Assembly (NCBI GenBank): GCA_043810775.1
Contig: JBDRNU010000025.1
Location: forward strand, 59,153 to 123,152
DNA from: an archaeon
GTDB lineage: Archaea > Nanobdellota > Nanobdellia > Pacearchaeales > GW2011-AR1
DNA: 64,000 nucleotides
Direction of reading: 5' to 3'
Of this stretch, positions 1,060 through 20,572 are shown piece by piece. Each line of letters begins with the position of its first letter. The first letter of the stretch is position 1. The notes below the pieces were generated by a model. It saw nothing but the letters and a program-made list of their open reading frames with translations, searched no databases and was not told the DNA's origin. The translations under genes were made by a program, and so were the position numbers.

Positions 1060-2805
1060 TTACTTGTTTTTTCCTTTAATCTTTCTTACAGTGCCATGAT
1101 TCATTCTTAGCTCGAGTTCATCTCCGTTTTTCAGTACTTTTGTGGCTATTTTTGTGCCTATTATGCAAGGTTTATTCATTTCTCGAGAGACTATAGCTGC
1201 ATGGCTTGTAATCCCCCCTATATCAGTTATTACTGCTCTTGCTTTTCTCATTAGTTGGACAAAATCTGGACGAGTCATTGGAGTAATTAGAATTTCATCT
1301 TCTGAAATTGTTTCTTTATAGGGATTTAAAATTACTTTAGCTTTTCCTAAAATAATTGGATTTTCACCTCTACAAGCTATGATTCCTTGGAAATTTTCTG
1401 TTTCAGAATGTGAATTTTCTTTTAAGAGTATATTTTTAATTGGAATTACATCATTTCCTGTAAAAAAGCTAATCTTATTTTTATTTTGAGATACTATAAA
1501 AATACCTTCTCTTCTTTCATTCAGTATATTTATATCAAGGTTTTTTTCAAGTAAATCTGGGAGTTCACTTATTTTTGCGTAAGATGTTAGTTTTGGTTCT
1601 AGTCCTGTTCTTTTTCCAAATTCTTCAAAAAATCTGAACATATGATGCAGCATCATTAGAACTATCTTTTTTCTTTCGTCTTTTATCCATGTTACATTTT
1701 GAATGTGCTGTAGTTCTTGGTCTATTTCTGAAGGTATTTTAAATTGTTTTATTATATTATTTCTTTTTTCTTTAATTGCTTCTGTATCTTCAAGTTCATT
1801 AAGTTCTTTTTTTAAATCAGTTAGGGTAAATTCTTTTAGTGCTCCTTTTATAAATTCAGTGAATTCTATTATTGAGAGTATTGTCCATTGCCCATATGAA
1901 TTCTGCACCCAATAATAATTTTGCTGATGCTCTTGTATTGCTCTGAATATTTCTGGATAATTCATTTTTAGTTCTGCTAGATAATCTGCATAAGGTAGAT
2001 TTTTTATAAGATTTCTTTGACGAGGGCTTTGAAAGTATTTTAAAATTAATCTTAGGAAGTCTCTTCTTTCTCTTGCTACAAATGATAATTCAAATGGAAG
2101 TGTTAGAGTTGCAAATGATTCTTTTGCTTTTTTTTCATCACCAATTAGCTTTGTAATTTTTGGCATGTAATAATCATCTAAATAATGATTATATGGTTCA
2201 ACTACTAGGCCTACTTCCCAGAATTTTCCTAGAACTTTGTTAAATTTATTAAATTCTTCAACTAGTGCTTCATTTGATAAAGAATCAATTTTAATGAATT
2301 CTAGTCTTTTTAGGAATTTTTCTGTTTTTTCATAAATCTCTTCATATTCTTTTAAGAAGATTTCAATTTTTTCTGGATCTTCTTTTACTGCTTTTATTTG
2401 CGCTTTACAGCTTTCTAGTGATTCTTGGATACTTAGAATTTGTTTCATGTAGTCTTTTTCTGTGTAAAATATTGAGTGTGATAAGCAGGGTTTGAAGTAT
2501 TTTTCAGTGTCTGACATTTTTAAGATTCCTATTTCAAGAGTTAAAGGAAGGCCTGGAGCTTCGTCTGTCCAGAATTTTTCTGTTTTTATATAATTCATAA
2601 ACTGGTCTTTATTAATTTCTTCTATTTCTTGTTTTTTATTTAGGAATTTATCAAGGTCTTGTTTTTTATAACGTCTATCTCCACGATTACCTATTCTAAT
2701 TGCTTTTAAAATTCCAGAATTATCCCAGTTTCTTAGGGTTATTTTACTAACTCCAAGTAGTTTAGCTGCTGAACTTATATCAATTAAATCTGTATTTTTA
2801 ACCAT
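1060..2805 (-). CDS. HTH_17/MerR-like DNA-binding domain + variable helical domain + PEP-utilizer phospho-His swivel domain
   Basis: N-term AAKLLGVSKITLRNWDNSGILKAIRIGNRGDRRY; C-term MTRPDF..TDIGGITSHAAIVSREMNKPCIIGT. Confidence 0.85.
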   Translation of the reverse strand: MVKNTDLIDISSAAKLLGVSKITLRNWDNSGILKAIRIGNRGDRRYKKQDLDKFLNKKQEIEEINKDQFMNYIKTEKFWTDEAPGLPLTLEIGILKMSDTEKYFKPCLSHSIFYTEKDYMKQILSIQESLESCKAQIKAVKEDPEKIEIFLKEYEEIYEKTEKFLKRLEFIKIDSLSNEALVEEFNKFNKVLGKFWEVGLVVEPYNHYLDDYYMPKITKLIGDEKKAKESFATLTLPFELSFVARERRDFLRLILKYFQSPRQRNLIKNLPYADYLAELKMNYPEIFRAIQEHQQNYYWVQNSYGQWTILSIIEFTEFIKGALKEFTLTDLKKELNELEDTEAIKEKRNNIIKQFKIPSEIDQELQHIQNVTWIKDERKKIVLMMLHHMFRFFEEFGKRTGLEPKLTSYAKISELPDLLEKNLDINILNERREGIFIVSQNKNKISFFTGNDVIPIKNILLKENSHSETENFQGIIACRGENPIILGKAKVILNPYKETISEDEILITPMTRPDFVQLMRKARAVITDIGGITSHAAIVSREMNKPCIIGTKIATKVLKNGDELELRMNHGTVRKIKGKNK

Positions 2806-2854
2806 TTTTAGCTAATTTTGTATATTTAAGTTGATATATATTTATAATTAATTA

Positions 2855-2869
2855 TTTATAAATGTTTCG
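2855..2869 (-). promoter_or_regulatory. Archaeal BRE-TATA promoter
   Basis: Minus strand CGAAACATTTATAAA; near-identical boxes at 7828-7843, 26352-26365 and about 41085-41098. Confidence 0.6.
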
Positions 2870-2883
2870 ATTTATACGAACTT

Positions 2884-4212
2884 TTAAAGAATCTTTATTA
2901 CACCAGTATTAGCATCTACTTCAACTTCTTGGCCGTCCTTTAAGACTTGTGTAGCTATTTTAGTTCCTATAATACAAGGCTTTCTTAGTTCACGAGCTAC
3001 TATAGCAGCGTGGCAAGTAATTCCACCTTCATCTGTTATTATAGCAGAAGCTTTTTTACAAGCTGTTATGATATTTGGACGTGTCATTTCACTAACTAAG
3101 ACGTCTCCTTCTTGCATATTTTTTATTTTTTCCAAGTGATTGTCAGCGTTTCTATAGGAAAGCACTATAACCTTACCTTTTACTTTTCCTTTGTTTGCTA
3201 TAGCTCCTTTTAATTCTTTTAAATCTAATTTTACAGATAAACTTTCTTTAATCTCTTTAGCTTTATTTCCTTCAAGTATATTTATTTCATTATTTTTTAA
3301 AATAAATATTGAGCTTTCTTTTCTTTCCTGTAATATGCTTTTTTCAATTTTCTTTCCTGTTTCAAGCATTTTAGCTATTTCTTGATAATTGCAAAGTCTA
3401 AGCTCTTCTTTTGATATCTTAAGCCTGGTTTTTATTTCTTCTAGGATCAATTCATTATAATATAGGGCTTGCATCCAGATAAGCCTCATTCTAAATCTTT
3501 GCTCAGTTATATTTCTTAAGATATCTGAAATTAATACAGCTTCTCCTGGAATTTCAGAATTTTGAATTAAGCTCATTCTTTCTTTTTGATCTGCATCCTC
3601 TTCTTTGAATAAGACTTTTTTATTAAGATTTTTGTCTATTTTAGCTTCTTCTGACTTAATTGATTCTGCAAATGATTTTAAGAAAGGATTATTTTTTTCA
3701 TTAATGATGAATCTCTTTTTAGGAGTAGTCAAAGCAATTATTATTCCATCTATATCTTTTATTCCTTGACTGGTTAATAAATCTCTTAATTTTTTTTCTA
3801 TTTTACTTATATTATGTGGTTGAGTTGCAATGTAGCTTATAAAACACTCTTTTATTCCCCTTCCAAAAGTATCTAGTAAGTTACTTAACTCTTCATTGCT
3901 TATTTCTTTGAAATCTTGTTCAGCTAGTTTTTGCATTTGGGTCACTATCGAACTGTAAGCAGTTTTTACTTCTTTTTCAAATTTCTTGAATTTAGTAGTA
4001 CTTCTGAAAAATTCATATCCTTCATTTTCAGCTTTTTTAAGTTCTTCTTCTTGAACATAAAATTCAGCATTAAATCCATTACCCCATACTAGTGCTTGGC
4101 TTATTCCAAATCCAAATCTTTCTTTTAGTCTTGGACCGTAATTTAGCAAGATACCATTTAAGTCATAGTAATTCTGATTTTCATCTGCCCACATTAAAAT
4201 ATATTTATTCAT
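2884..4212 (-). CDS. Variable helical domain + PEP-utilizer phospho-His swivel domain
   Basis: C-term TDEGGITCHAAIVARELRKPCIIGT..VEVDANTG; no ATP-grasp; start overlaps upstream gene by 8 nt. Confidence 0.85.
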   Translation of the reverse strand: MNKYILMWADENQNYYDLNGILLNYGPRLKERFGFGISQALVWGNGFNAEFYVQEEELKKAENEGYEFFRSTTKFKKFEKEVKTAYSSIVTQMQKLAEQDFKEISNEELSNLLDTFGRGIKECFISYIATQPHNISKIEKKLRDLLTSQGIKDIDGIIIALTTPKKRFIINEKNNPFLKSFAESIKSEEAKIDKNLNKKVLFKEEDADQKERMSLIQNSEIPGEAVLISDILRNITEQRFRMRLIWMQALYYNELILEEIKTRLKISKEELRLCNYQEIAKMLETGKKIEKSILQERKESSIFILKNNEINILEGNKAKEIKESLSVKLDLKELKGAIANKGKVKGKVIVLSYRNADNHLEKIKNMQEGDVLVSEMTRPNIITACKKASAIITDEGGITCHAAIVARELRKPCIIGTKIATQVLKDGQEVEVDANTGVIKIL

Positions 4213-4960
4213 TTTGTCCTCTTTCTGTATATTCTCTGCATCTAGCTCTTACTTTATTATCGCTTTCTTGCACATATGCACTCCATTTTTCATAATTTAG
4301 ATACTTCAGTCTTCTTATACCTGAATAAGCATCTGCCCAGATTCTTTCACCCAATTTTCTTCCTTGAACTATAAGTTCGTGAGCTTCTTGATCTCTAGCT
4401 GCTTTATCTCCAGCACGGTATTCCCATCCATTCATTGAATAGTATCTTGCATCTGCAGGTTTAAGGTCTTCTGGAGTTTTTCCTTGTTTTTTAGGAATAA
4501 CTACTCTATTTACAAAGTCATTAGGGACTTCTGTGTCATCCATATCTTTTCCATAAACTTTATGTGTGAATTTTGTTCCTTCAAGAACTGTTTTGTATTT
4601 TCTTCCTTTTCTTTGACCTGCTTGTTTTTGATATTCTCCAAGAATATGTGTGTCTACTGCATAAACTTTATCAGCTTGTCTTAATTTTTCTCTTGTTGAA
4701 GCTTTTCTACCAGTATTCCTAAGGGCCTCTATGTCTAAGTTATATCTACCTATACTTTCTTCTAAAGCTTGAATATGCTTATCTTCAATAGGATGGTTTT
4801 CTTTATTTCCTATATAGTCTGGATGACCCATGCCTTCGGCTGTAATCTCTAATTCACCTAAATGTGCTAGTTCATCTATTCTAGTCTGAGCTATAGCAGC
4901 AAGAGTTGTCCCTCTCCTACCCCCATAACATCCGACCAGAGCTTTGTATTTGTTTTTCAT
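4205..4960 (-). CDS. Divergent low-molecular-weight phosphatase (LMW-PTP/ArsC/PTS EIIB) fold protein
   Basis: KALVGCYGGRRGTTLAAI (P-loop-like, CX4R), ITAEG, LDI, KLRQADKVYAVD, GKDMDD align by eye with LMW-PTP motifs; GAGGT SD upstream. Confidence 0.5.
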   Translation of the reverse strand: MKNKYKALVGCYGGRRGTTLAAIAQTRIDELAHLGELEITAEGMGHPDYIGNKENHPIEDKHIQALEESIGRYNLDIEALRNTGRKASTREKLRQADKVYAVDTHILGEYQKQAGQRKGRKYKTVLEGTKFTHKVYGKDMDDTEVPNDFVNRVVIPKKQGKTPEDLKPADARYYSMNGWEYRAGDKAARDQEAHELIVQGRKLGERIWADAYSGIRRLKYLNYEKWSAYVQESDNKVRARCREYTERGQNE

Positions 4961-5071
4961 TTTATTTTTATACCTCTTAATAATAGTAACATCTTTATAT
5001 ATTTAAAAGCTTTTCCTTGTTTTTTGTGAATTATAGGGAAAGTTTATATAGTATTCCATATTTTAACAATT

Positions 5072-6052
5072 ATGATAGATATTGATGTAAAAGATAGGAA
5101 AATATTGTATTATCTTTCCCAAGATGGAAGAGCTAGTAATACTCATCTTTCAAAGAAAGTTGGGTTGAGTAAAAATGCTGTTGCATATAGAATTGAGAGA
5201 CTGAAAAAATTAAAAGTTATAAAACACTTTGCTTCAATTGTAAATCTTGGAAGCTTAAATTTCACTACTTTTACTGTTTTGTTAAAGTTTAATGAGGATA
5301 TATATGAAAATAGTTCTATTATTGAGTATTTTAAAAGCCATGATTATGTTGATTGGATGGTCAGCTTGTCTGGGCAGTGGGACCTTTTTATTGAGTTTGT
5401 TTCCAGGGATTTTAACCATTTGACTGAGATAATAGAGGAAATTATAAGTTATTTTAAAGATACGCTTGAAACTTATGAGTTATCTTATTCTAGGGTGACT
5501 TTAAGAGTTGAGCATCTTGTAAAGGATTTTTACCAGGACTTAAAACTCAGTCCTATTAAGACTAGTGAGAGAACTAAGCAGATCTTTAAGCTAGATAAGA
5601 TTGATAAGCAGATACTAGAAGTTCTAAATAAAGATTCTTCTCTTCCTTATCTTAGTATTGCTGAGAAATTAAAGACCAGTATTGATGTTGTGAGATATAG
5701 GATTAGTAATTTAGTTAGTAAAGGAGTGATAGTTAAATTTTTCCCAGAAATATCCCTTCCCAAGTTAGGTTATACTGAGTATTTGTATAGTTTAAGATTA
5801 AAGAACTTATCTTCTGAAAAATTTAGGGATATTCAGAATGATATAAAAAATAATAACAATATAACTTATGCGTTTGTAGATAGTGTTAGTTTAAGGATTA
5901 TTTTTGTCTGTGCATTTAAATCTCCAGAAGCTATAGATCATTTATCCAGAGGCTTAAGAAAAAAGTATATGGGCAGTATAGATAAACAGGAGTATCTTAT
6001 AATTAAGGAACAGATGCTGTTTAATTTATTTCCCAGGGGATTAACTAAATAA
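5072..6052 (+). CDS. Tandem (double) Lrp/AsnC family transcriptional regulator
   Basis: Two repeats of D.KD.KIL..L..D.R.S...LS.K.G.S...V.YRI..L...GVI, each followed by a RAM-like domain. Confidence 0.9.
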   Translation: MIDIDVKDRKILYYLSQDGRASNTHLSKKVGLSKNAVAYRIERLKKLKVIKHFASIVNLGSLNFTTFTVLLKFNEDIYENSSIIEYFKSHDYVDWMVSLSGQWDLFIEFVSRDFNHLTEIIEEIISYFKDTLETYELSYSRVTLRVEHLVKDFYQDLKLSPIKTSERTKQIFKLDKIDKQILEVLNKDSSLPYLSIAEKLKTSIDVVRYRISNLVSKGVIVKFFPEISLPKLGYTEYLYSLRLKNLSSEKFRDIQNDIKNNNNITYAFVDSVSLRIIFVCAFKSPEAIDHLSRGLRKKYMGSIDKQEYLIIKEQMLFNLFPRGLTK

Positions 6053-7780
6053 TTATTTTATGACTTTTATTAGCCCGTGATGCATTCTTATTTCAATTTC
6101 TTGACCTGATTGAAGAACTTTTGTAGCATTTTTAGTGCCTATAATGCATGGTTTGTTCATTTCTCTTGAAACTATAGCTGCATGACAAGTTATTCCACCT
6201 TCATCTGTAATTACTGCTCTTGCTTTTCTCATTAGTGGGACGAAATCAGGACGAGTCATACTAGTAACTAGTATTTCATCTTCTGAAATTGTTTCTTTGT
6301 TAGGGTTGAGAATTACTTTTACTTTCCCCCGTATAATTGGTTCGCTGCCCCTACATGCGACGTTTCCCTCTATTTCATATACAGTCTTAGTCTCAATATT
6401 TTTTGAGACTAGTTTTTTAAATTCTAGAAATTCATTTCCTACTAGTATGCTGAATTTGTTTGGTTTTTGAGATATAAACGAGCAGCCATTACGCCTTTGC
6501 TGTAAAGTGGAAATTGGCATTGAATTTTGGAGTATAAGGGGGATTTCTTCTGTTTTTGCATATCCTATTAGTTTTTCATTAATTCCTGTTCTTCTTGCAA
6601 ATTCTTCTATAAATCCGTGTATATTATGTAGATATATTAAAATAACTCTTTTTCTATCATCTTTAATCCATGTAATATTTTTTATATATTCTAACTCCTT
6701 TACTACTTTTTCAGGGATTTTTAATTCTTTAATTAGCTCTTCTTGTTCTTTTTTAAGAGCATCAAAATTTGTTATTTTGTCTAGTTCTTGTCTAGCTTGT
6801 TCAATTGTAGATTCTTTTATAGAGTCCCTTAAAATATTCAGAAAATCAGTTACTTGCAAAATTGTTCTATCTAGATAATTGTTTTGAACCCAAAAAAATT
6901 CTCTTTGGTGTTTTAAAAGAGCTTCAAAGAATTTGGGTTCGTTAATTTTTATATATGTTAAGAAATCTTCGTTTGAATCATTCATAATTTTTTTTCTTTT
7001 TTTATTATTGTTTAGATATTTTATAATCATATTTAGAAGGCTTTTTCTTTCTTCAGCTGTGAATGAGGACTTTGTTGGAAGAGTCAGCAATGAAAAAGCA
7101 TGTCTTGCTTTTTTCTTGTCACTTGCTTTTTTCTCAAAATCTAGGTAATAAAGGTCTGTAAATGGGTCGTGTGATTCAACAAGTAAATTAATATTCCAAA
7201 ATTCAATTAAAGGCTTGTTAAATAAATTAAATTCTTTTAATAGTTCTTCTGTTGAAAGTTCTTTGAGTCTAATAAATTCTAAACGAGTCATTGCTGTTTC
7301 AAATTTTTTAGATCGCTTAGCCCATTCTTTAAAGAAATTTTCTATTTTTTTTGGATTTTTATTTACTGCTTCAAACTGGGCCCTACAATTTTCAATAGAT
7401 TCTGATAAACTTAAAGATTGGATTATAAAATCATTTTCTGATAAATGTGGGTAGAAGGTTACTCCTGGTTTAAACCAATTTTCCATTTTAGCGCCCTCTT
7501 TAATTCCTAGTTCTGCTGTAATAGGGAGTCCTGGAAGTTCTTGAAACCAGAAATCATTGTGTTTTACCCAGTTCCAGAAGAATTCTTTGTCAATTTCTGG
7601 ACATTTTTCCTTATTTAAAAGCTTGTTTATATCCTCTTTTTTATAACGTCTATCTCCACGATTACCTATTCTTACTGCTTTTAAAGTCCCAGAATTATCC
7701 CAGTTTCTAAGGGTTTTCTTACTAATCCCTAGCTGTTCTGCAGCTGTATTTATTCCAACTAATTCTTCATTTTTAGCCAT
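6053..7780 (-). CDS. HTH_17/MerR-like + variable helical domain + phospho-His swivel domain (paralog of 1060-2805)
   Basis: AAEQLGISKKTLRNWDNSGTLKAVRIGNRGDRRY; TDEGGITCHAAIVSRE; ends near-identical to the 581-aa protein. Confidence 0.85.
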   Translation of the reverse strand: MAKNEELVGINTAAEQLGISKKTLRNWDNSGTLKAVRIGNRGDRRYKKEDINKLLNKEKCPEIDKEFFWNWVKHNDFWFQELPGLPITAELGIKEGAKMENWFKPGVTFYPHLSENDFIIQSLSLSESIENCRAQFEAVNKNPKKIENFFKEWAKRSKKFETAMTRLEFIRLKELSTEELLKEFNLFNKPLIEFWNINLLVESHDPFTDLYYLDFEKKASDKKKARHAFSLLTLPTKSSFTAEERKSLLNMIIKYLNNNKKRKKIMNDSNEDFLTYIKINEPKFFEALLKHQREFFWVQNNYLDRTILQVTDFLNILRDSIKESTIEQARQELDKITNFDALKKEQEELIKELKIPEKVVKELEYIKNITWIKDDRKRVILIYLHNIHGFIEEFARRTGINEKLIGYAKTEEIPLILQNSMPISTLQQRRNGCSFISQKPNKFSILVGNEFLEFKKLVSKNIETKTVYEIEGNVACRGSEPIIRGKVKVILNPNKETISEDEILVTSMTRPDFVPLMRKARAVITDEGGITCHAAIVSREMNKPCIIGTKNATKVLQSGQEIEIRMHHGLIKVIK

Positions 7781-7827
7781 TTTTTAATAATTTTAGCTTT
7801 TTTAGTTGGAATTAGTTGACCTTTGCA

Positions 7828-7857
7828 TTTATAAATGTTTCGGTTAAAGGGTATTTA
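7828..7857 (-). promoter_or_regulatory. BRE-TATA promoter plus a 16-bp box shared with 9577-9592
   Basis: TTTATAAATGTTTC-GGTTAAAGGGTATTTA versus TATATAAATCTTTT-GGTTAAAGGGTATTTA. Confidence 0.55.
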
Positions 7858-7872
7858 AAAAGAAGTTAGGGA

Positions 7873-9534
7873 CTACTTTTCTAGAATCCTAATTACTCCG
7901 TGATTTGCATCTACTTCAACTAAGTCACCTGTTTTTATTGTCCTAGTAGCAGATTTTGTACCTACTATGCATGGAACTCCAAGCTCGCGAGAAACAATAG
8001 CAGCATGGCAAGTAATTCCTCCTTCATCTGTGACTAGGGCAGAGGCTTTTTTCATAGCTGGTAGAAAGTCAGGAGTAGTCATACCTGTAATTAGTATCTG
8101 GCCTGGTTTTATTTTATGAGTATTAGCTAGAGTAATAGCTACAAAAGCTTCTCCAACTACTTTTCCAGGTGAAGCACTAATACCTTGCAGATCTTTTACA
8201 TCTCCAATATGATCTCCCAAGATTTTTTCATGCTCTTTTGAGGCATGAATTCCACTCCAGGTGGAGATTTTTCCATTGTTGTTAAAATAAAGAAAGTGTT
8301 CTTTTCTCTGGTTTATTTCGTTTTCATTTAACTCACCTTTTTGCAGTATTGAAATTATTTCTTCAGGGAGACACCAATCTAGTAGTGATGCATGAACTTT
8401 TGAGCGTTTTGAGATTTCATCAAGAATCTGAAATTCATAATAATTGTACTTCATCTGAACTTCTTTTCTAAAATCATGATAAATAAACAGCCTATCTAGG
8501 ATTCTTAGGTATTCTGCAAGCTCTTTATCTTTTGATAAGTTATACTCCTTTTCAACAGCATTTTTTTCCTTTTTTGCTTTTTCTTTGTATTTTTGAATTT
8601 CATCAAGCTCATTTTGCACTTCTTTTTCTGATTTTTTATTACTTTTAATTTCTGAGTCAAAGTATGAAAAATCTTTTCCTTTTTCTCTAGGCCAACCTAA
8701 ATTTGTCCACCAGAATAGTTCAACTAGTTTTTGTATTCTTGCTTTAAATTCTTGTGAACTATTAATAATTCTCCCAGATTTTAAATCTTTAATAGTTTCT
8801 AAAACCATTTTTCTTTCATCATTTAGATAAGAAAGCTGGCTTGGCATTGTAGATATATTATAAATTCTGATAAATTCTCTTTCAGTGTATTTCTCTTTTA
8901 GTTTGTTTTTTAAGATGTTCTTAATTTTTTCATTTATATCAATTGCCAGACTTTCATCAGTTCCATCAATTGCCATAACTATGCTATAAAATTCATAAAT
9001 AATTTGAGCGAATTTTTTATAATGTAAAGCTAGTTCTGAGGTTTTCATTTTTTCAACTTTTTCTTTAGGAGTGTTTTTAATAAATGCTAGAAGCTCTGCT
9101 GATTTTTCATCCCATGATTTGAAGAAATTGTTTTCAAAATCTTTTGAGCTTAGGAATTTTTCAATTACTTTTTTACCTATTTCATACAAATTATTTTTAT
9201 CATAGTACCAGAACAAGGTGCTATTTTCAAAGTAATTCATTAAATATTTAGCATTAATATCAAAATATTTTTTAATCCCACTTCTTAACGCTTCTAGTGG
9301 GTGTATTGATTGATGATAGCTTGTACCGCTTCGAATATATTCTAGCCATTCTATCTTCTTTTGTTTTGATTTTTCTAAGAATTCTAGGAGGTCTTGTTCT
9401 CTGTACTTTCTATCTCCTCTTGCACCTACTCTTACTGCTTTAAGCTTTCCCTCTCGATCCCATTTTCTTAAAGTTATGGGTTTGATGCCTAGCTTTTTAG
9501 CTGCTTCTTGTAAATTTAGTAGATTTTCAGCCAT
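7873..9534 (-). CDS. HTH_17/MerR-like + variable helical domain + phospho-His swivel domain
   Basis: LLNLQEAAKKLGIKPITLRKWDREGKLKAVRVGARGDRKY; TDEGGITCHAAIVSRELGVPCIVGT. Confidence 0.85.
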   Translation of the reverse strand: MAENLLNLQEAAKKLGIKPITLRKWDREGKLKAVRVGARGDRKYREQDLLEFLEKSKQKKIEWLEYIRSGTSYHQSIHPLEALRSGIKKYFDINAKYLMNYFENSTLFWYYDKNNLYEIGKKVIEKFLSSKDFENNFFKSWDEKSAELLAFIKNTPKEKVEKMKTSELALHYKKFAQIIYEFYSIVMAIDGTDESLAIDINEKIKNILKNKLKEKYTEREFIRIYNISTMPSQLSYLNDERKMVLETIKDLKSGRIINSSQEFKARIQKLVELFWWTNLGWPREKGKDFSYFDSEIKSNKKSEKEVQNELDEIQKYKEKAKKEKNAVEKEYNLSKDKELAEYLRILDRLFIYHDFRKEVQMKYNYYEFQILDEISKRSKVHASLLDWCLPEEIISILQKGELNENEINQRKEHFLYFNNNGKISTWSGIHASKEHEKILGDHIGDVKDLQGISASPGKVVGEAFVAITLANTHKIKPGQILITGMTTPDFLPAMKKASALVTDEGGITCHAAIVSRELGVPCIVGTKSATRTIKTGDLVEVDANHGVIRILEK

Positions 9535-9589
9535 TTTAACTTGTTATAAGTTATTATAAGTATATATAAATCTTTTGGTTAAAGGGTAT

Positions 9590-10186
9590 TTACATTGATG
9601 AAATTATTTCATCAGAATTAGAGATAATACAAATATTTGGAAAGATATTTTTTATAACAAAGTCGTGCAGTTCCTGGCTCATACTTGCGCAGCAGTCTTC
9701 TACAACTATGACTTGATGGTTTTCATCTGCAGCTCTTCGTGCAACTGCTTCAACTACCCAGTTTGTTGCTACTCCTGTTAAAAGTAGTGTTTGTATGCCT
9801 TGAATTTGCTTTTCAAAATCAGGGTTTGTGTATGGGCTTATTCTTGATTTTGAGATTACTGGTTCATTATCAAGAGGTTTTAGCTCTTCGTGGATTTCAG
9901 CTCCCCAGGTCCCTTTTAACATAGCTTTGAATTGGGGAGTCATTTTTTGAAGTGGCTCAAAGCTGGATTCAACTTCTGGGTAGCCTTCAGTGTATTCTAC
10001 TTTTACAAAAACTACTTTTACTCCTAAAGAGCGAGCTTTTTCAAGTAGTTTCTTTGTGTTTTGTATGGCATTCTGCTTTTTTGCGTGTTCCATAATGCCC
10101 ATTCCAGCTACTTTGCCTTTTTCGTGGATCATGTCATTTTGCATATCTAGAACCAATAGAGCTGTATTTTCTTTATTTACTTCCAT
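9590..10186 (-). CDS. Isochorismatase/cysteine hydrolase family protein (catalytic Cys absent)
   Basis: TALLVLDMQND, GTWGAEI, K.R.S, TGVATNWVVE, VVEDCCAS. Confidence 0.85.
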   Translation of the reverse strand: MEVNKENTALLVLDMQNDMIHEKGKVAGMGIMEHAKKQNAIQNTKKLLEKARSLGVKVVFVKVEYTEGYPEVESSFEPLQKMTPQFKAMLKGTWGAEIHEELKPLDNEPVISKSRISPYTNPDFEKQIQGIQTLLLTGVATNWVVEAVARRAADENHQVIVVEDCCASMSQELHDFVIKNIFPNICIISNSDEIISSM

Positions 10187-10223: not shown

Positions 10224-11654
10224 TTAGAGAATTCTTACTATACCTTTATCTGCGTCTATTTCAACTAGGTCGCCTGTTTTTAGGATTTGAGAAGCTATTT
10301 TAGTGCCGACTATGCATGGAATTTTTAGTTCACGAGAGACAATGGCTGCATGACAGGTGACTCCTCCTTCATCTGTGATTATAGCTCCTGCAAACCTCAT
10401 TAGTGGTGCAAATTCTGGACGAGTCATTCCAGTGACTAGGATTGTCCCTTGCTTAAAATCAGTTGCTTTAAATGGGTCTCTTACGATTCTTACTATTCCT
10501 TGAACTTTGCCTGGATAAGCTGACTGTCCTGTAATTAACTTATCTGATGATTTTTGTTTTTCTTGGGAAAGGTAGATTCTATCTATTTGTTGTTTTATTG
10601 TGTCAAAGGTATTATATTCTTCTTCTATTTGCCCGTTATAATATGCTATTATAGAGTATCCTTTTAGTCTTTTCTTAATATAATTTTTATTTTCTTTTAA
10701 GTAGCTTATTCCTTGAATTAGCTCTTCAAAATTATAATAATATATTAAGTCTTTTTCTAAACCAGCTTCATTAAACATTTTTTGAGCTACTCTAAACTGA
10801 ATTGTGATTCCTTTGGAAATTGGGTCTTTTCTTGAGTCTCTTATATTAATTATCTCTTGTATGTAATGGACAAGTTTTTTTTCATCCTGGTTTAATTTAT
10901 TTAAGAATTCTTGAAATTGATTTAGTTTTTCTTCTGATGCTTCTGGAATTTCTGAGTCTTCATATTTTTCTTTTAATAGGTCTTGGACTATTTCTGGGCT
11001 TTCAACGTTTTTATAATCTGCAAACTGGTATTGGAGTTTTTCTGAGACTATTTGCCAGTTTTTGTGTTTTTTTGTAATTTCCATAGCAGCTAATTGCCTT
11101 TTTTTGTCAAATGAATCACTTATTGGAGTGGTAGCTTGGTCCCAGATTTGATTTAGCCTTTGTTTTGTAATTGGTATTTTAAGTTCTTTTATTAGTTTAA
11201 TACACATTGACTTGTCAAATTGAGTTGCAAACCAGGCTAGGCAGTTTAAGTGACGTACAGAATCAATTATTTCTTTAAGATAGTTTAGAATTGTATCATA
11301 ATTATTTTTTTGGATAAAGTCATAAGTAAGTTTATTGTATATTTTATCTATTTTATCACTAAATTCTTTGAAAATTTTCTTTCTTTCTTGTAATTTATTT
11401 GGATTTTTCCAGTATTGCCTGAAAAAATCTTCAGCCATATTATTATAAGTTGTTTCTGACATGAATACAATTCCTTCGTCTTGTTTCATTGTTATTAGAA
11501 AAGTCATGTTTAAAGGCAGTGTGTAATATAATTCATGAAAATTAGGGGCAAATCCTCCTGCTCCGTTTGCTAGCATTGTTACATTATGTACAGGTGGGTA
11601 GAATCTATGGCCTCTCATTATTTCTAGAAACTTATCCATTAGTGTAGGCTTCAT
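10224..11654 (-). CDS. Variable helical domain + phospho-His swivel domain
   Basis: MTRPEF..TDEGGVTCHAAIVSRELKIPCIVGT; ATGA overlap with upstream gene. Confidence 0.85.
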   Translation of the reverse strand: MKPTLMDKFLEIMRGHRFYPPVHNVTMLANGAGGFAPNFHELYYTLPLNMTFLITMKQDEGIVFMSETTYNNMAEDFFRQYWKNPNKLQERKKIFKEFSDKIDKIYNKLTYDFIQKNNYDTILNYLKEIIDSVRHLNCLAWFATQFDKSMCIKLIKELKIPITKQRLNQIWDQATTPISDSFDKKRQLAAMEITKKHKNWQIVSEKLQYQFADYKNVESPEIVQDLLKEKYEDSEIPEASEEKLNQFQEFLNKLNQDEKKLVHYIQEIINIRDSRKDPISKGITIQFRVAQKMFNEAGLEKDLIYYYNFEELIQGISYLKENKNYIKKRLKGYSIIAYYNGQIEEEYNTFDTIKQQIDRIYLSQEKQKSSDKLITGQSAYPGKVQGIVRIVRDPFKATDFKQGTILVTGMTRPEFAPLMRFAGAIITDEGGVTCHAAIVSRELKIPCIVGTKIASQILKTGDLVEIDADKGIVRIL

Positions 11655-13189
11655 TTTTTCATACCTATTTTTCTAATTATTCCAGTTGAACCGTGAATTT
11701 CAACTATTTCACCGTTTTTAAGCACTTTTGTACCAATCTTAGTGCCTACAACACAAGGAACTCCAAGCTCGCGAGAAACAATAGCAGCATGGCAAGTAAT
11801 TCCCCCCTCGTCTGTTATGATTGCTGAAGCCAGCCTCATAGCTGGAACAAAATCAGGAGTAGTCATTGTAGCCACTAGAATTTCACCTTTTTGCATTTCA
11901 TTGACTTTGCTAGGATCTAGCAAGACTCTCACATTACCTAGAGCATTTCCAGGGTTGGCTGTTGTTCCTTTAATTTCTGTTACAGTTTGGTCTATTTTTT
12001 CTACAAATGCATCAAATATCTTGTCTGCTTCTTGTCCAGAATATGCTGAAAACTTTCCTTGGATGCAGTAGAAAAATCCTTTTTCATTTCTTCTTTCAAG
12101 CTCTTTTTTATCAATTTTGTTTTTAAGCAGAGCTTCTTTTAGTTCATTAAATAAGAGCATGTTAAGTAATTGCCTTGGAATGTTAAGTCTTTTTGCTGTT
12201 TCTTTTCTCCAATTAATCATGTGATAATGAGATATAGTGTATTTCTCTTTTTTAAAGTCAAGAAGATAGCCTGAATCAGCGATTTCTTGGAATAATCTAA
12301 CTATTTCTTTATGGAGTTTAAGTTCTGTTATAATTTGATTCTTTTTTGCTTTAATATTTTCAGAGTATTTTTCAAGTTCGCTTATCTTATCTTGCACTTT
12401 AATTTTGCTTTTTAATCTGTCTTTTATAACAGTTAGAAAATAATCCAAATCCCATATTGCACTTCCATAATCATATGGTACCCACGAGAATTTTTTTTCA
12501 TGCTCTAAGAGTTTTTTGTAAAATGGTTGAAAATTTTTTAAAGATTCTTTAATTTTCTTTATTTCTTTAATATCAAATACCTTTTCTAGGGCTTTATTTC
12601 CTTTGACTTCTTTTATTAGCTTAAATAATTCTAGTTCTTCTTTATTGACAAAGCTTGGAGTATCAGGTGTTATCAGTGTTGTTATATATGAGTCTAGTAT
12701 TTTTTTATCATTTATTTTATCTTGGATTTCTTTTTTCAGCTCTTCTACAAATCCAAACCTTAGTCCCCAACTAACCATTTCACTATATGGGTATGCTTCA
12801 AGGTATAACTTATAGTATTCCCTGTATATTTCAAATAGTTCTTCATTACTCTTCTTTGTCAAATCTTTATTTGAAATTTCAAGCGTAAACTTATTCAGTG
12901 TTCCCACTTTTTCTTTGAAGTTTTTTATAAGATTTTTTACTGAAAGTTTATTGCTCTTTGCATTTTTGATTACTGTGTTTTCAAATTTACTAAAGAAATC
13001 TTCACGAAAAACCCAGTACATTCTTCCTTTTTTAAATGCTACTACTAAGTCTCTTAAACTTTCTCCTAAGACTTCTGCTACGTTTGAGGTTGCTCCTTCC
13101 ATTATTGGTAGAGCTAGTATCATATTAACATCATTATTGCTTCTTTCTTGGGCTATTACTAATCCTTTTGGGCTTATTTTTATTTTCAT
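11651..13189 (-). CDS. Variable helical domain + phospho-His swivel domain
   Basis: MTTPDF..TDEGGITCHAAIVSRELGVPCVVGT; ATGA overlaps on both sides. Confidence 0.85.
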   Translation of the reverse strand: MKIKISPKGLVIAQERSNNDVNMILALPIMEGATSNVAEVLGESLRDLVVAFKKGRMYWVFREDFFSKFENTVIKNAKSNKLSVKNLIKNFKEKVGTLNKFTLEISNKDLTKKSNEELFEIYREYYKLYLEAYPYSEMVSWGLRFGFVEELKKEIQDKINDKKILDSYITTLITPDTPSFVNKEELELFKLIKEVKGNKALEKVFDIKEIKKIKESLKNFQPFYKKLLEHEKKFSWVPYDYGSAIWDLDYFLTVIKDRLKSKIKVQDKISELEKYSENIKAKKNQIITELKLHKEIVRLFQEIADSGYLLDFKKEKYTISHYHMINWRKETAKRLNIPRQLLNMLLFNELKEALLKNKIDKKELERRNEKGFFYCIQGKFSAYSGQEADKIFDAFVEKIDQTVTEIKGTTANPGNALGNVRVLLDPSKVNEMQKGEILVATMTTPDFVPAMRLASAIITDEGGITCHAAIVSRELGVPCVVGTKIGTKVLKNGEIVEIHGSTGIIRKIGMKK

Positions 13190-15303: not shown

Positions 15304-18300
15304 TTATTTAGCTTTCTTTTTAGATAGGACTTTTACTACACCAATATCTGCATCTACTTCCACAACTTCTCCTTCACCCAAAATATCTGTTGCATTTACT
15401 GTTCCTACTATTGTTGGTTTTTTTAGTTTCTCAGCAACAATTGCAGCATGACAGCTTCTTACTATTCCTTCATCAGCGTCAACTTCAACTCTTTTTCCTT
15501 CTTGCAAAAATTCTGTTGCTATTTTAGTGCCTATTATTGTAGGTTTTTTAAGCTCACGGGCTACTATAGCTGCATGGCAGGTAATTCCCCCTTCATCTGT
15601 TACAATTCCTCCTGCCAGTTTCATGGCTGGTACGTATCTTGGATCAGTCATACTTGTAACTAGAATATCTCCTTTTTCAATTTTTTTTGCATCTTCTATT
15701 TTTCTTATAATTCTGACTCTTCCTATAGCTTTTCCTTTATATGCTGAGACGCCTTTAATTTCTTGGTTTTCTTTTTTTTCATTAAGTTCATCCCATAAAG
15801 ATTCTTTGTAAAATATTTCTTGACCTTTCGAGGTATATTTTATGATGCAAAATTTTTTTCTTTTTTCAATATCTGGAATTTTCTTGGTTTTAAGGAATTC
15901 TTCAAATTCATCTATTGTGAGGTATTTTAAAGAGCCTTTTTTAGTATTGTACTTTTTTTCAAGTTTTGTTAGTATTTTTTCCTCGATTATGAAACTTCTT
16001 TTATGCACATCTTCATATGCTCTTCTTATTTCTAGGGCTATATCATTAATTTCTTTTGGAATATCTTCTCCATAGTACATTGGAACTTCATATCCTGAAA
16101 GAATAACATTTGTAAAGTCAACAAATGTTTTGTAGAGTTTTACTGCTGCTTTTTCTGGGTTTTTGTAGCTATCTTTGTAAAATTTGTTAAATTCAGTGAG
16201 TTTTTTGTCATATTGCTTTTTTATTTTTCTAAAATCCTCTAAAGTATTTCTTTGGATAAGGCTTTTACTTCTTTTTCTTCCATCTTCTTTTGATGTATAG
16301 TGGTAGAGGATGTCATCTCTCATTGTTATATAACATGGACTTGATCCTACTCCAAAAAATTCCTTATTTTCATTAAATAAACCTTTAAAGACACAAGTTG
16401 TTCCTAAAATAGAATAGTCTCTTTGATGTCTGTCATAATCAAGAGACTTGTCAAATTCTAAAAGAGTTGTTTTTTTATCATGTCTGTGCTGGCTTTTTTC
16501 TAATATTATTACTTGGGCGTGATTTGCTTTTACTTCAACTAAATCCCTGTCTTTAAGGATTTTTGTTCCAACTTTTGTGCCAATTATACAAGGTATTCCA
16601 AGTTCACGAGAGACAATTGCAGCATGGCAAGTCATTCCTCCTTCATCTGTAACTATTGCTGATGCTCGTTTCATAGCTGGAAGATATTCTGGGCGAGTCA
16701 TTCCAGTTACAAGTATCTTCCCTTGTTCAAAGTTCTTAATGTCCTCTAGTGTTTTGCAGATTGAAACCTCCCCTATTGCCTGTCCTGTAGATGCACATGT
16801 TCCACTTATTGTTGTTGACTCGATAATTTTTTCTTGATCTGAAATTTTCTCATATATTTCTTTTGCTTTATCCCCGCTAAAAATTATTATATTATTTGGA
16901 AGAGAGGGATTCATAATCCATATGAACATTTCTTCTCTATTTTTGATTTCTTTCTGAAATTCTTTATCTAAAAACTTCTTGCTTTCAATTTCCCGAGGCA
17001 TTAGATAATAGAGTTTTTTAACAGGAATTTTATATTTTTCTGCTATTTTGTGCAAGACTTTATCATGCTCGCATACAGCTTTCATAATATTTTCTTTTCT
17101 TTCATCTTGCCAGAGTGTACAAAATGAGAGAAGATTAGCAAGATTTTGAGTTTTTCGATCTATATTGTATTTTTTAATTATTTGTTTTTTTGCAACTCTT
17201 ATTTTAATAAAGTGATCTTTTGGTAGCAATTTAATTGAATCTTTTTGCTCAAGTAGCTCCTTTATTGTTAGAGGATCAGTTCCAGCATAACTGCTTTTAA
17301 TCCATTCAAATTTTTCAAGGTGTTTTTCAAGAAGTTTTTTTTGCTTATTCTTATCTTTAGATTTAAATGCTTTTAATAGACTTTCATCATGGCGATTGTT
17401 AAATGATTCTTCTTCTGGCATGGTTAATACATTTAACGCTTCATTAAGCTGTTTTAAATCTTTTATTTTTTTATCAAGCAAATGTTTTAATACATGGCTT
17501 TGAGTTAAGGAAAATGCTTCAATTACATGACCTGTTCCTACTCCATAACCAATTAGGTCAAAAGTTATCTTAAATACCTCTAACAATTCTTTCTCTGAAT
17601 AATCTGTTTTAGCTTTTGATTTTAGCTTGTTGTATTGCTTTGAAAATTGGTTGCTGTAGATTATTCTGGTTTTTTGAAAATATTTTTCATCTTTTTTTAA
17701 TTTATTAAGTATAATCTCTCCAACTCTCTCTAAGTCAGATTTTATGTAAGACATGTCCCCAAAGTCTTTTTCTGACTTGAACATAAATTTCTCATAGCTA
17801 TATCCTAAAGGATCCTTCATTTTATCTGTTGAGTCTACAGCTGCATTAAAGAATACTGGATATGCAGAGCCTTGTTGAGTTATTCTCTCTTCTTTTAGTA
17901 TTTTTTCGATAATTTCGCTACTTGGGTTCTGGTCATTAAGTATTTTTACTATACCTTTATCTGCATCCACTTCGACTTCCTGGCCGTCTTTAAGTACCTT
18001 TGTAGCTATATTAGTGCCAATTATACAGGGTTTTTTTAGCTCACGAGAAATAATAGCTGCATGACATAAAATTCCCCCCATATCTGTTATAATAGCAGCT
18101 GCTTTTTTCATCAATGGAACATAATTTGGATCTGTCATACTACACACAAGAATCTCCCCTTCTTTAAATTTTAAAAAGTCATGACTTCCAAGCACTATTT
18201 TAATATTTCCTTTAACAACTCCTTTATAGGTTGGTGTGCCTGTGAAATCTTTTGTTTCTTTTAGTATGGTATCAAGATAATCCTTTTTTAGCTTGTCTAA

Positions 18301-20307
18301 ATCTTTTTTGCATAATAAATAGTTATTATTTATAGAAATCATAGCCACATCATTTCCTAGACAAGAATCTTCTAAAGTGAGTTTCTTTCTTTCCAATAAC
18401 TTATAAAATTGATCAAGTGGCAGAGATAACAATTTTTCGTAAGATATTTTATTCGCTGATGCAATTTTTTTAAAAACAGGTTTTAAATTGTATACTGCTT
18501 TGTTAGTCACTTCATTATTAAGAATTCTTCCTACTGAAAAGATGTTTAGGATTTTAATTAATTCATTTAATTTTTTATCTTTAAAATTATGTTTTTCAAA
18601 TCCTCTTTTTTCATTATCTGCTCTCTTAATCTGTTCTAGAATATCTTGTTTAGTGTAACCTTCTCCAGATAGAAAGTATTGGTTTAAATAACTGTATTCT
18701 TCAATCACTTTATCTATATCTTTTGAACTAAATTTTCCTTTTTCTCTTAATCTTGCTATTTCAGTCTCAAGTTTAAATGCATCTGATTCTTCATCTTTAT
18801 CTAATAATTCTGGCACTGTAATTTGTTTTATTTTTAGTTCATCAAATCTTTTCAATATTGATTCTTCAAGATAATTACTCATATCCCTTAATATTTCAAA
18901 TACAACAAGAATTGTTAATACTTTCTCTAGGATATTTGATACTGATTTTTCATTATAGTTTTTCTTTTTAGATATTTCCCCTATTTCTTTCTCAAGTTCT
19001 TTTCTGAATTTCTCTTGATTTTTATTAAAATTATAAATAAAACTAAAGTCTCCTGAATCTATTCTTCCAACTACTTTTTTTTCAATTATTTCAAGTTCTT
19101 TTTCTGCGACGTAAACATCATAACCTGCTGATAAATATTTAATAGGAGGAATATCTTGAATTCCATATTTTTTTAAATAAAATCTAGATTGTGAACTATT
19201 GAATATATCAAACATTAATCTTGGAACTCTCCAACTACCTACTTTTTTCCAATTATCTTTTTTGTATTTATCAATAAATTCTTTGTATGAAATTTGTTCA
19301 CTTTCTTTAAATGGAGTTTCAGAATAAGTCACTTCATCTTTTTTTTTAGGCTCTTCCTCTTCTAAGGAAGTTAGAGTAGTAATTGGGCGAGATTGAGTTA
19401 TGTATAGCTTACCTTTTTCCATTGCCCATTCAACATCTACTGGGAATCCATAATGGTTTTCTATCTTAGCTATTAGTTTTGAAAGTTCAATTATTTCTTT
19501 ATCTGTTAAAATCTGTTTGTTTCCTTCTTCTCCTAGCTCTCGCCACTCATTTCCCCCACCCTTTACTCTGAATAAACCTCTTGATTGTTCTGAGATATTT
19601 TTATCAATAATATGCCAGTCCTGCTTGTCTATAACATAGCTATCTGGAGTTATCTGGCCTGAGACTATTGCTTCTCCTAAGCCTAGACCTGCTTCAATTA
19701 TTAGCTGGTTTCTGTCTTGAGTTACAGGATGAACTGAGAATGCTATTCCAGATTCTTCACTAGCAACCATTTTTTGAACTACTACTGCTACTGATATTTT
19801 TTGATTGTGGAGTTTTTGCTCAAATCTATAGAATATTGCTCTTGGAGTGAAAAGTGAGGCCCAGCATTTTTTTACGTTTTCAAGCAAGCTGGATTTTGTA
19901 GTGTTTAGATAAGATTCAAGCTGGCCTGCCCAGGCTGCTGAAGCTGAATCTTCTGCAGTTGCGCTGGAACGGACTGCTACATATTCTGCACCTAGTTTTT
20001 TAAATTCTACTAGAATCTCGGTTTCAATATCTTTAGGCATTTCTGCATTAAGAATTAGAGCTTTTATTGTTTCTGAAGCTTCTTCTGATGTATGCACTTC
20101 TTCTGTATTGACAGTGTCCATGGCTGCGTCAATTTCTGTTATGAGATCCGCTTCTTCAATGAATTTTTCAAAAGCATCTGATAATATAACAAATCCTTCT
20201 GGAACAGGAATTCCTGCCTGAGTCATTTCACCTAAACTAGCTCCCTTACCACCAGCTATATTTGCATCATTTTTACTAATTTTGGAAAAATTGAGTGTAA
20301 ATTGCAT
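15304..20307 (-). CDS. PPDK_N ATP-grasp domain + three [variable domain + phospho-His swivel] modules + partial fourth swivel; rifampin phosphotransferase-like architecture
   Basis: GGKGASLGEM, VAVRSSATAED, GLGEAIVSG, DVEWA, QSRPIT (about 19372-20307); His motifs at 18061, 16624, 15574 and 15448; no C-terminal PEP/pyruvate TIM barrel. Confidence 0.9.
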   Translation of the reverse strand: MQFTLNFSKISKNDANIAGGKGASLGEMTQAGIPVPEGFVILSDAFEKFIEEADLITEIDAAMDTVNTEEVHTSEEASETIKALILNAEMPKDIETEILVEFKKLGAEYVAVRSSATAEDSASAAWAGQLESYLNTTKSSLLENVKKCWASLFTPRAIFYRFEQKLHNQKISVAVVVQKMVASEESGIAFSVHPVTQDRNQLIIEAGLGLGEAIVSGQITPDSYVIDKQDWHIIDKNISEQSRGLFRVKGGGNEWRELGEEGNKQILTDKEIIELSKLIAKIENHYGFPVDVEWAMEKGKLYITQSRPITTLTSLEEEEPKKKDEVTYSETPFKESEQISYKEFIDKYKKDNWKKVGSWRVPRLMFDIFNSSQSRFYLKKYGIQDIPPIKYLSAGYDVYVAEKELEIIEKKVVGRIDSGDFSFIYNFNKNQEKFRKELEKEIGEISKKKNYNEKSVSNILEKVLTILVVFEILRDMSNYLEESILKRFDELKIKQITVPELLDKDEESDAFKLETEIARLREKGKFSSKDIDKVIEEYSYLNQYFLSGEGYTKQDILEQIKRADNEKRGFEKHNFKDKKLNELIKILNIFSVGRILNNEVTNKAVYNLKPVFKKIASANKISYEKLLSLPLDQFYKLLERKKLTLEDSCLGNDVAMISINNNYLLCKKDLDKLKKDYLDTILKETKDFTGTPTYKGVVKGNIKIVLGSHDFLKFKEGEILVCSMTDPNYVPLMKKAAAIITDMGGILCHAAIISRELKKPCIIGTNIATKVLKDGQEVEVDADKGIVKILNDQNPSSEIIEKILKEERITQQGSAYPVFFNAAVDSTDKMKDPLGYSYEKFMFKSEKDFGDMSYIKSDLERVGEIILNKLKKDEKYFQKTRIIYSNQFSKQYNKLKSKAKTDYSEKELLEVFKITFDLIGYGVGTGHVIEAFSLTQSHVLKHLLDKKIKDLKQLNEALNVLTMPEEESFNNRHDESLLKAFKSKDKNKQKKLLEKHLEKFEWIKSSYAGTDPLTIKELLEQKDSIKLLPKDHFIKIRVAKKQIIKKYNIDRKTQNLANLLSFCTLWQDERKENIMKAVCEHDKVLHKIAEKYKIPVKKLYYLMPREIESKKFLDKEFQKEIKNREEMFIWIMNPSLPNNIIIFSGDKAKEIYEKISDQEKIIESTTISGTCASTGQAIGEVSICKTLEDIKNFEQGKILVTGMTRPEYLPAMKRASAIVTDEGGMTCHAAIVSRELGIPCIIGTKVGTKILKDRDLVEVKANHAQVIILEKSQHRHDKKTTLLEFDKSLDYDRHQRDYSILGTTCVFKGLFNENKEFFGVGSSPCYITMRDDILYHYTSKEDGRKRSKSLIQRNTLEDFRKIKKQYDKKLTEFNKFYKDSYKNPEKAAVKLYKTFVDFTNVILSGYEVPMYYGEDIPKEINDIALEIRRAYEDVHKRSFIIEEKILTKLEKKYNTKKGSLKYLTIDEFEEFLKTKKIPDIEKRKKFCIIKYTSKGQEIFYKESLWDELNEKKENQEIKGVSAYKGKAIGRVRIIRKIEDAKKIEKGDILVTSMTDPRYVPAMKLAGGIVTDEGGITCHAAIVARELKKPTIIGTKIATEFLQEGKRVEVDADEGIVRSCHAAIVAEKLKKPTIVGTVNATDILGEGEVVEVDADIGVVKVLSKKKAK

Positions 20308-20499: not shown

Positions 20500-20572
20500 T
20501 GCTCCTGCCGGGATTCGAACCCGGATTTCAAGCGCGAGAGGCTCGCGTCCTTAGCCGTTAGACTACAGGAGC
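20500..20572 (-). tRNA. tRNA-Glu(CTC)
   Basis: GCTCCTG/CAGGAGC acceptor stem, CGAGC-ct-CTC-gc-GCTTG anticodon arm, GGTTCGAATCC T-arm. Confidence 0.95.

Follow-up and report, generated by a model that had tools for sequence, protein, structure and literature searches.

Among the closest described relatives of the system reported here are enzymes that divide a phosphotransfer reaction between two polypeptides. In the split dikinases HpeHI, PpsAB and CreHI, as PMC12167813 describes them, the ATP-grasp domain resides on one protein and the RIF-binding-like and swivel domains reside on the other. An enzyme that controls its own gene is also on record from archaea: RbkR is a riboflavin kinase that carries a DNA-binding domain and controls the gene encoding it, and its binding to DNA responds to its nucleotide ligands (PMC5397151). 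BldC, a protein with a MerR-like helix-turn-helix (HTH) lacking a coiled coil, binds direct repeats in a head-to-tail arrangement (PMC5859096). Here we describe a locus of a Pacearchaeales archaeon whose proteins invite comparison with all three. The window analysed is a stretch of 64,000 nucleotides (assembly GCA_043810775.1, contig JBDRNU010000025.1, positions 59,153 to 123,152), and the genes in question lie on its minus strand at 1060..2805 (g581, 581 amino acids (aa)), 6053..7780 (g575, 575 aa) and 7873..9534 (g553, 553 aa). Our favoured reading, to which we give roughly even credence, is that g581, g575 and g553 are trigger enzymes like RbkR: each would serve a split dikinase of the RPH/HpeH type as a complete acceptor component and would in addition bind the promoter of its own gene.

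All three proteins combine an N-terminal HTH_17 domain (PF12728, residues ~5-58; 38.3-39.4 bits against a cut-off of 27, E 7e-10 to 2e-9) with a C-terminal PEP-utilizers swivel (PF00391; 77-91.5 bits against a cut-off of 23.1), so that the co-occurrence of HTH and intact swivel noticed in a preceding sequence-only reading is confirmed by Pfam in every case. The HTH heads map to ~2632-2781 in g581, ~7610-7753 in g575 and ~9367-9522 in g553, and the swivels to 1102-1305, 6083-6286 and 7897-8112, respectively. The catalytic histidine motif GGIT[CS]HAAIVSRE is intact in g581, g575 and g553; GGxT[SC]HAAI is the histidine motif of phosphoenolpyruvate (PEP) synthase, RPH and HpeH (PMC12167813). A Pfam scan of the three proteins found neither PPDK_N (the ATP-grasp domain) nor PF02896 (the PEP/pyruvate TIM barrel), and returned no match to receiver, PRD, EIIA or EIIB domains.

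The assignment of the heads to the HTH_17/MerR type of DNA-binding domain, likewise proposed from the letters of the sequence, is upheld by comparison with known HTH structures. The profile of an alignment of 12 head-bearing proteins (A2) matches Xis gp37 (4j2n) at 2e-5, MerR-family regulators at 6e-5 and 6ama/6amk, presumably BldC entries, with E 0.008-0.011. Fifteen HTH positions are invariant over the 12 rows of A2, which share 28-58 % overall identity. Matches to the MerR and MerR_1 models overlap HTH_17 and involve only the HTH part of those models (PF13411 covers profile positions 3-46 of 69); neither a MerR coiled-coil helix nor a MerR C-terminal effector domain was found in g581, g575 or g553, in which an RPH-like domain follows directly after the HTH. 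A match to Mad1, a small HTH protein of PADLOC, was also obtained (5e-14); beyond the HTH, PADLOC gave no match, and nothing thus points to a known defence system.

Genome-wide (995 kb, 26 contigs, 80 % complete), HTH_17 exceeds its cut-off in g581, g575 and g553 only. The same architecture of head and swivel recurs in 10 more full-length proteins of 45-58 % identity, in 5 of the 38 short relatives of g553 that were scanned, and at loci L001, L079, L081, L084/L085 and L163; the fusion is therefore not an artefact of gene calling. Our literature search, which did not extend to the supplements of a resistome survey of the Candidate Phyla Radiation (CPR), found no paper on an HTH-swivel fusion or on arrays of such modules, in keeping with the earlier reading, to which no characterised fusion with a PEP-utilizer His domain was known.

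That earlier reading described an HTH joined to a histidine swivel. Both domains are indeed present, but the ~400 residues between them, a probable RPH-type substrate-binding domain in our analysis, had been overlooked. This middle domain spans ~1393-2628 in g581, ~6374-7603 in g575 and ~8197-9363 in g553 and is without a Pfam family. The A2 profile aligns with residues 628-866 of the Listeria RPH (RPH-Lm, 5fbs), continuing ~130 residues past the swivel and inside the RIF-binding domain. In this single distant alignment, K373, D374 and K377 of g575 (K373-D374-D-R376-K377) fall on R666, E667 and K670 of RPH-Lm. The substitutions R666A and E667A abolish the second phosphotransfer of RPH-Lm, whose K670 takes part in the same network of hydrogen bonds (PMC4844700). 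D374, R376 and K377 do not vary over the 12 rows of A2, and K-D-x-R-K is the best-conserved motif of the family.

To exclude carry-over from the swivels, these were cut off, and a profile built from 46 modules, of which 11 come from the window and 35 are single-module relatives, was compared by hhalign with the swivel-free middle of 19 RPH-like proteins (P0025 and P0180-P0197; fewer if short rows were dropped). The alignment scored 43.2 (E 7e-5, probability 63 %) over 268 collinear columns; the best score among the controls, two reversed and 20 block-shuffled, was 19.9, with E >= 0.11. In several modules, alignments to the NCBIfam models RPH, PRK06241 and PigC reach well inside the middle domain, always with scores far under the cut-offs, residues 290-551 of g553 align with residues 617-864 of RIF_Ptrans_rph at 5.5e-23, and PF27448 (Rph_4th) is among the nearest named sets in the Atlas, which we treat as a lead only. 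On this sequence evidence the middle domain is probably, if not provenly, a distant homologue of the RPH substrate-binding domain.

The resemblance to RPH (5FBS; PMC4844700) comprises the order of the binding domain and the C-terminal swivel and a basic-acidic..basic motif at the place of R666-E667..K670. Unlike RPH, the modules have no ATP-grasp in the same chain, and nothing points to an antibiotic substrate. The three proteins are not RPH itself, since the NCBIfam equivalog for RPH proper (NF041857) reaches at most 81 bits in them against a cut-off of 999. The supposition that relatives of 840-1000 aa have RPH architecture was rejected: 13 of the 13 that were scanned (825-996 aa) turned out to be tandems of two modules with two swivels and without PPDK_N, and P0136 matches RPH in its swivel only.

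The three genes, and with them the range 1060-9534 singled out in the sequence-only reading, are part of a larger assembly of paralogues. They constitute 3 of 11 modules in a 20-kb minus-strand array, which runs to 20307 and comprises eight separate modules and three that are fused in a protein of 1667 aa. The separate modules without a head consist of a middle domain and a swivel. One of them, g442 (2884..4212), overlaps by 8 nt an open reading frame (ORF) of 251 aa at 4205-4960, and four more, g476, g512, g350 and g355 (10224-11654, 11651-13189, 13186-14238 and 14235-15302), follow one another with overlapping stops and starts. The array ends with the 1667-aa protein (15304..20307), made up of a PPDK_N ATP-grasp domain (residues 16-324), three pairs of middle domain and swivel, and a partial fourth swivel. 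At its C-terminus (15304-15450, minus strand), after the third swivel, this partial fourth copy restarts at CHAAIV, reflecting either partial duplication in tandem or an error of assembly.

The array holds 12 of the 14 swivel matches of the genome, and the PPDK_N domain of the 1667-aa protein is the sole ATP-grasp near it. PPDK_N occurs three times in the genome: in the 1667-aa protein, in an 866-aa open frame on contig C7 where a swivel match adjoins the PPDK_N match, and in a swivel-less protein of ~494 aa on contig C22. Because g581, g575 and g553 lack an ATP-grasp, their phosphoryl groups must be supplied in trans, by either the 1667-aa neighbour or the stand-alone PPDK_N protein on C22; the neighbour is the likely donor of the array. 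This layout recalls HpeHI, PpsAB and CreHI (PMC12167813), in which an RPH-type substrate-binding domain and a C-terminal swivel with GGxT[SC]HAAI are served by an ATP-grasp on a separate, nearby-encoded polypeptide. It differs from them in the number of acceptor modules per ATP-grasp (eight separate and three fused) and in the DNA-binding head of three of these; the hosts here are small archaeal genomes, theirs are aromatic-degrading bacteria, and the sequence relation is distant.

Upstream of each head-bearing gene, a BRE/TATA-like string (B recognition element and TATA box; GAAACATTTATAAAT or AAAAGATTTATATAT) ends 27-48 nt before the ATG, at 2854..2868 for g581, 7827..7841 for g575 and 9562..9576 for g553, all on the minus strand, in agreement with the BRE-TATA that the sequence-only reading had assigned to each gene. 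The pattern RAAANRTTTATAWAT has 5 copies in the window against 0.15 expected, a statistic that is biased because the pattern was written after the three sites had been seen. The head-less genes downstream of the 1667-aa protein have overlapping stops and starts, whereas each of the three with a head is a solitary gene preceded by a promoter-like string of its own.

Repeated elements fill the stretch from the TATA-like string to the ATG of each gene. Before g553 (9536..9561, minus strand), ACTTATAA is found at 9561 and again at 9551, a spacing of 10 bp, inside a 24-nt string that contains TAACTT-N5-AAGTTA. The element before g575 (7790..7818, minus strand) consists of CAACTAA at 7818 and 7808, then AGCTAAAA one turn further, and that before g581 (2808..2833, minus strand) of CAACTTA at 2833 and, roughly two turns of the helix away at 2808-2815, the palindrome TTAGCTAA. 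The exact 24-nt string TTATAATAACTTATAACAAGTTAA, directly before the ATG, is common to g553 and its 48%-identical relative at L084, and the more distant relative at L081 (33-35 % identical) is preceded by three copies of the half-site TAACTTATA, two of them as 10-bp direct repeats. Between genes, ACTTATAA and CAACTWA occur within the window's first 23 kb only at the own promoters of g581, g575 and g553.

These conserved direct repeats fit DNA binding by the proteins at their own promoters, and they sit where, we infer, a repressor in archaea would prevent transcription from starting. The correspondence with BldC/Xis HTH_17 proteins (PMC5859096) lies both in the MerR-like HTH without a coiled coil and in candidate sites that are direct repeats with helical periodicity; those proteins differ in being stand-alone chains of 60-70 aa, while here the HTH heads an enzyme-like protein of 550-580 aa. 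As conserved repeats precede each of the three genes, the genes probably switch themselves off or on according to the state of the module.

A further shared element, ATACCCTTTAACC, lies directly upstream of the BRE/TATA-like string of g575 (7842..7854, minus strand) and of g553 (9577..9589, minus strand), and these are its two exact copies in the genome. The g575 and g553 proteins are 33 % identical, yet both are preceded by ATACCCTTTAACC, which may be a shared upstream site for another regulator. The second exact genome copy of TAACTTATAAC, at C3:68983, is intergenic and without the repeat arrangement, and was judged a chance match.

The trigger-enzyme reading can be put together as the following sequence of steps. 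Each protein would consist of a substrate-binding domain and a phospho-histidine swivel without an ATP-grasp, to which an Xis/BldC-like HTH has been added at the N-terminus. The swivel histidine would be charged in trans by an ATP-grasp, most likely that at the N-terminus of the 1667-aa neighbour, and the swivel would then pass the phosphate on, at the K-D-x-R-K site, to an acceptor that occupies the middle domain. The HTH would bind the 10-bp-periodic direct repeats that separate the TATA box of its gene from the start codon and that cover the expected start of transcription, and the protein would thereby repress or otherwise tune its own synthesis, with the occupancy or phosphorylation state of the enzyme part setting its affinity for DNA. 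Such a protein would resemble the trigger enzyme RbkR (PMC5397151) in being an enzyme with a DNA-binding domain that controls its own gene by substrate or product, a control that we infer here, and would differ from it in enzyme class, the present one being a phospho-histidine swivel dikinase module.

The heads themselves vary among relatives. In a sister clade, represented by four relatives (P0074, P0078, P0084 and P0134) and by ORFs at L014 and L067, an unrelated N-terminal domain of ~55 aa takes the position of the HTH and is followed by the same W-x-EYIR junction as in g553. The modules at L014:5191-6882 and L067:13966-15309 show this domain as KRxLVQIP..SKxVHILLQE, and their genes are preceded by TGTAAAC direct repeats instead, with 10- and 20-bp spacing (2 of 2 loci). 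From its strand-helix-helix pattern we guess that the domain is a ribbon-helix-helix; Pfam, a PDB profile search and PHROGs gave no support for this.

A quick IQ-TREE phylogeny of 73 modules with the heads cut off (rows hand-chosen, long rows flagged) places the HTH-bearing modules in three clades: 14 rows with g575 and g581 (support 100); g553, five others and one head-less row (support 99); and P0162 with L081 (support 100). The rows with the other head form a fourth group (support 88). At least five changes of head state are required on this tree, and hence heads have been gained or exchanged repeatedly. Near the end of the swivel, x-H-G (mostly NHG) is present in 27 of 27 head-bearing and 13 of 46 head-less modules, a difference that is not significant (5 independent tree pairs, median p 0.25).

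This history bears on the idea that the head is a leftover or a protein-contact domain without a role on DNA, derived for example from the N-terminus of an IS607-type transposase. A weak match to the N-terminus of an IS607 transposase model (~1e-6, far below cut-off) and the rarity of the fusion, seen in 1 of 400 other genomes of the class, speak for it. Against it stand the 15 HTH positions invariant across A2 at 28-58 % identity, the retention of the head in three module clades and its replacement by another domain in a fourth, and we consider a head without a role on DNA very improbable.

The tree also bears on the earlier view of the proteins as dedicated transcription factors and signal receivers, in which the RPH-like module would have lost catalysis, its sole task being to sense a ligand or the phospho-histidine and to adjust DNA binding accordingly. 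Such one-component regulators would be consistent with the HTH, with the swivel and with the conservation of the repeats upstream, as well as with the monocistronic organisation of the head-bearing genes, each with its own promoter, against the operons of head-less modules with overlapping stops and starts. However, the K-D-x-R-K and histidine motifs are kept as in the head-less modules with no mark of degeneracy, and the head-bearing modules nest among head-less ones in the tree. The DNA-binding part of that view agrees with the repeats at the own promoters, but the proteins look like complete HpeH-type components carrying a DNA-binding head, and we regard pure transcription factors as unlikely.

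A different role for the head is suggested by its occurrence elsewhere. The same HTH type heads type I HsdM / N6 DNA methyltransferases on metagenome contigs in 3 of 3 scanned ORFs (L088:1693-3435, L090:613-2322 and L135:2786-4918); about a dozen further ORFs of 702-744 aa carry this head and were identified by the head only. By analogy, the HTH of g581, g575 and g553 might bring the phosphotransfer module to an acceptor that is DNA itself or is bound to DNA, and have no function in transcription control. Dikinases that phosphorylate a polymer do exist, glucan, water dikinase being one. Against tethering, the repeats are placed precisely at the promoters of the genes themselves and change in type when the head does, which is the signature of operators, and the middle domain is the same as in many head-less modules; we hold tethering to be improbable.

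Several observations weigh against the trigger-enzyme reading itself. The homology of the middle domain is drawn from sequence profiles, at an hhalign probability of only 63 %; a middle-only profile of the 11 window modules gave nothing significant against the PDB, and the RPH-like proteins of the P0025 group used in hhalign are without R-E at the aligned place. The conservation of the repeats comes from few loci, three for the g553 type and two for the other head, and for the g575/g581 clade no clear counterpart of the repeats is seen at L001 or L163. Short A/T-rich repeats arise easily in AT-rich DNA. Finally, on HsdM the HTH could serve substrate targeting as well as regulation.

The module family extends far beyond this genome. 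A search with g553 returned 27,362 cluster representatives at E <= 1e-3 and 2,810 at E <= 1e-30, which comprise single modules (~470-505 aa) as well as tandems with 2-6 of them, and with one genome per species relatives were found in at least 574 stretches. The best 78 of these at least 574 stretches were taken with their flanks as a locus set; their records are named Woesearchaeota, Pacearchaeota, Nanoarchaeota, Micrarchaeota and Iainarchaeum, with many Patescibacteria and some other labels. At least two swivel ORFs are present in 57 of the 78 loci and at least four in 38, and 27 include an ATP-grasp ORF, so that arrays of this kind are a common feature of records named as DPANN archaea and Patescibacteria. 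Head-bearing genes stand in the same kind of array at L079, L081, L084, L014 and L067, and stand-alone PPDK_N (ATP-grasp) ORFs end the arrays at L084 and L014. Within this distribution the HTH fusion is uncommon: one of the 78 loci (L001) has the HTH head, a search with the head only yielded 4 of 80 metagenome loci with head and swivel (L079, L081 and L084 = L085), and the fusion occurs in 1 of the 400 other genomes of the class (L163, confirmed) and in 0 of 76 of the family.

A bolder reading, to which we give a low probability, is that these arrays make up an as yet undescribed system, widespread among ultra-small archaea and bacteria, where one ATP-grasp would charge many different acceptor modules and the head-bearing modules would close a phospho-histidine-dependent transcriptional feedback loop. 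The parts are known; their combination and the layout of many modules per ATP-grasp appear to be undescribed. A survey of the CPR resistome counts rph-like hits (PMC8651080), and its supplementary tables may include members of this module family.

Trigger enzymes with DNA-binding domains include PutA, BirA and NadR. The PRD regulators LicT/BglG and LevR, controlled by the phosphotransferase system (PTS), offer a parallel in that a regulator binding nucleic acid could be governed by a phospho-histidine relay made of PEP-utilizer parts. The proteins described here have no PRD, EIIA or EIIB, unlike LicT/BglG and LevR, and the phosphorylated histidine would sit on the swivel of the regulator itself. 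Were the state of this histidine to control DNA binding, it would constitute a new design of signal-responsive regulator in archaea; were the arrays to close feedback loops, they would add to the two-component and PTS/PRD systems a third route by which gene expression is coupled to histidine phosphorylation, assembled wholly from dikinase parts. This one family of phosphotransfer modules takes up about 20 kb, or 2 %, of a ~1-Mb genome. The head-bearing members offer an experimental entry point to it through their predicted operators and their dependence on ligand or phosphorylation, and a ligand that releases them from DNA would indicate the substrate class of the whole family.

Other genes lie in, around and away from the array. 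A ninth single module, head-less and of 491 aa, is found away from it on contig C3 of the same genome (L159:10652-12127). The ORFs at 248-1009 and 4205-4960 (minus strand), in or at the edge of the array, match no Pfam or NCBIfam family, and an isochorismatase-family gene lies in or at its edge at 9590-10186 (minus strand). On the plus strand, 5072-6052 encodes a 326-aa protein with two AsnC/Lrp-type HTH units in tandem, convergent with g575 and ending one base before it. In the opposite direction to the array, 20986-22715 (plus strand) holds an APH/fructosamine-kinase-like gene and a histidine-phosphatase-superfamily gene with a 16-nt overlap, and a tRNA-Glu(CTC) gene (20500-20572, minus strand) separates this pair from the array. 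Two very long ORFs are encoded on the same contig, one of 2546 aa in the window (30834-38474, plus strand) and one of 2524 aa at L160:3673-11247 (plus strand).

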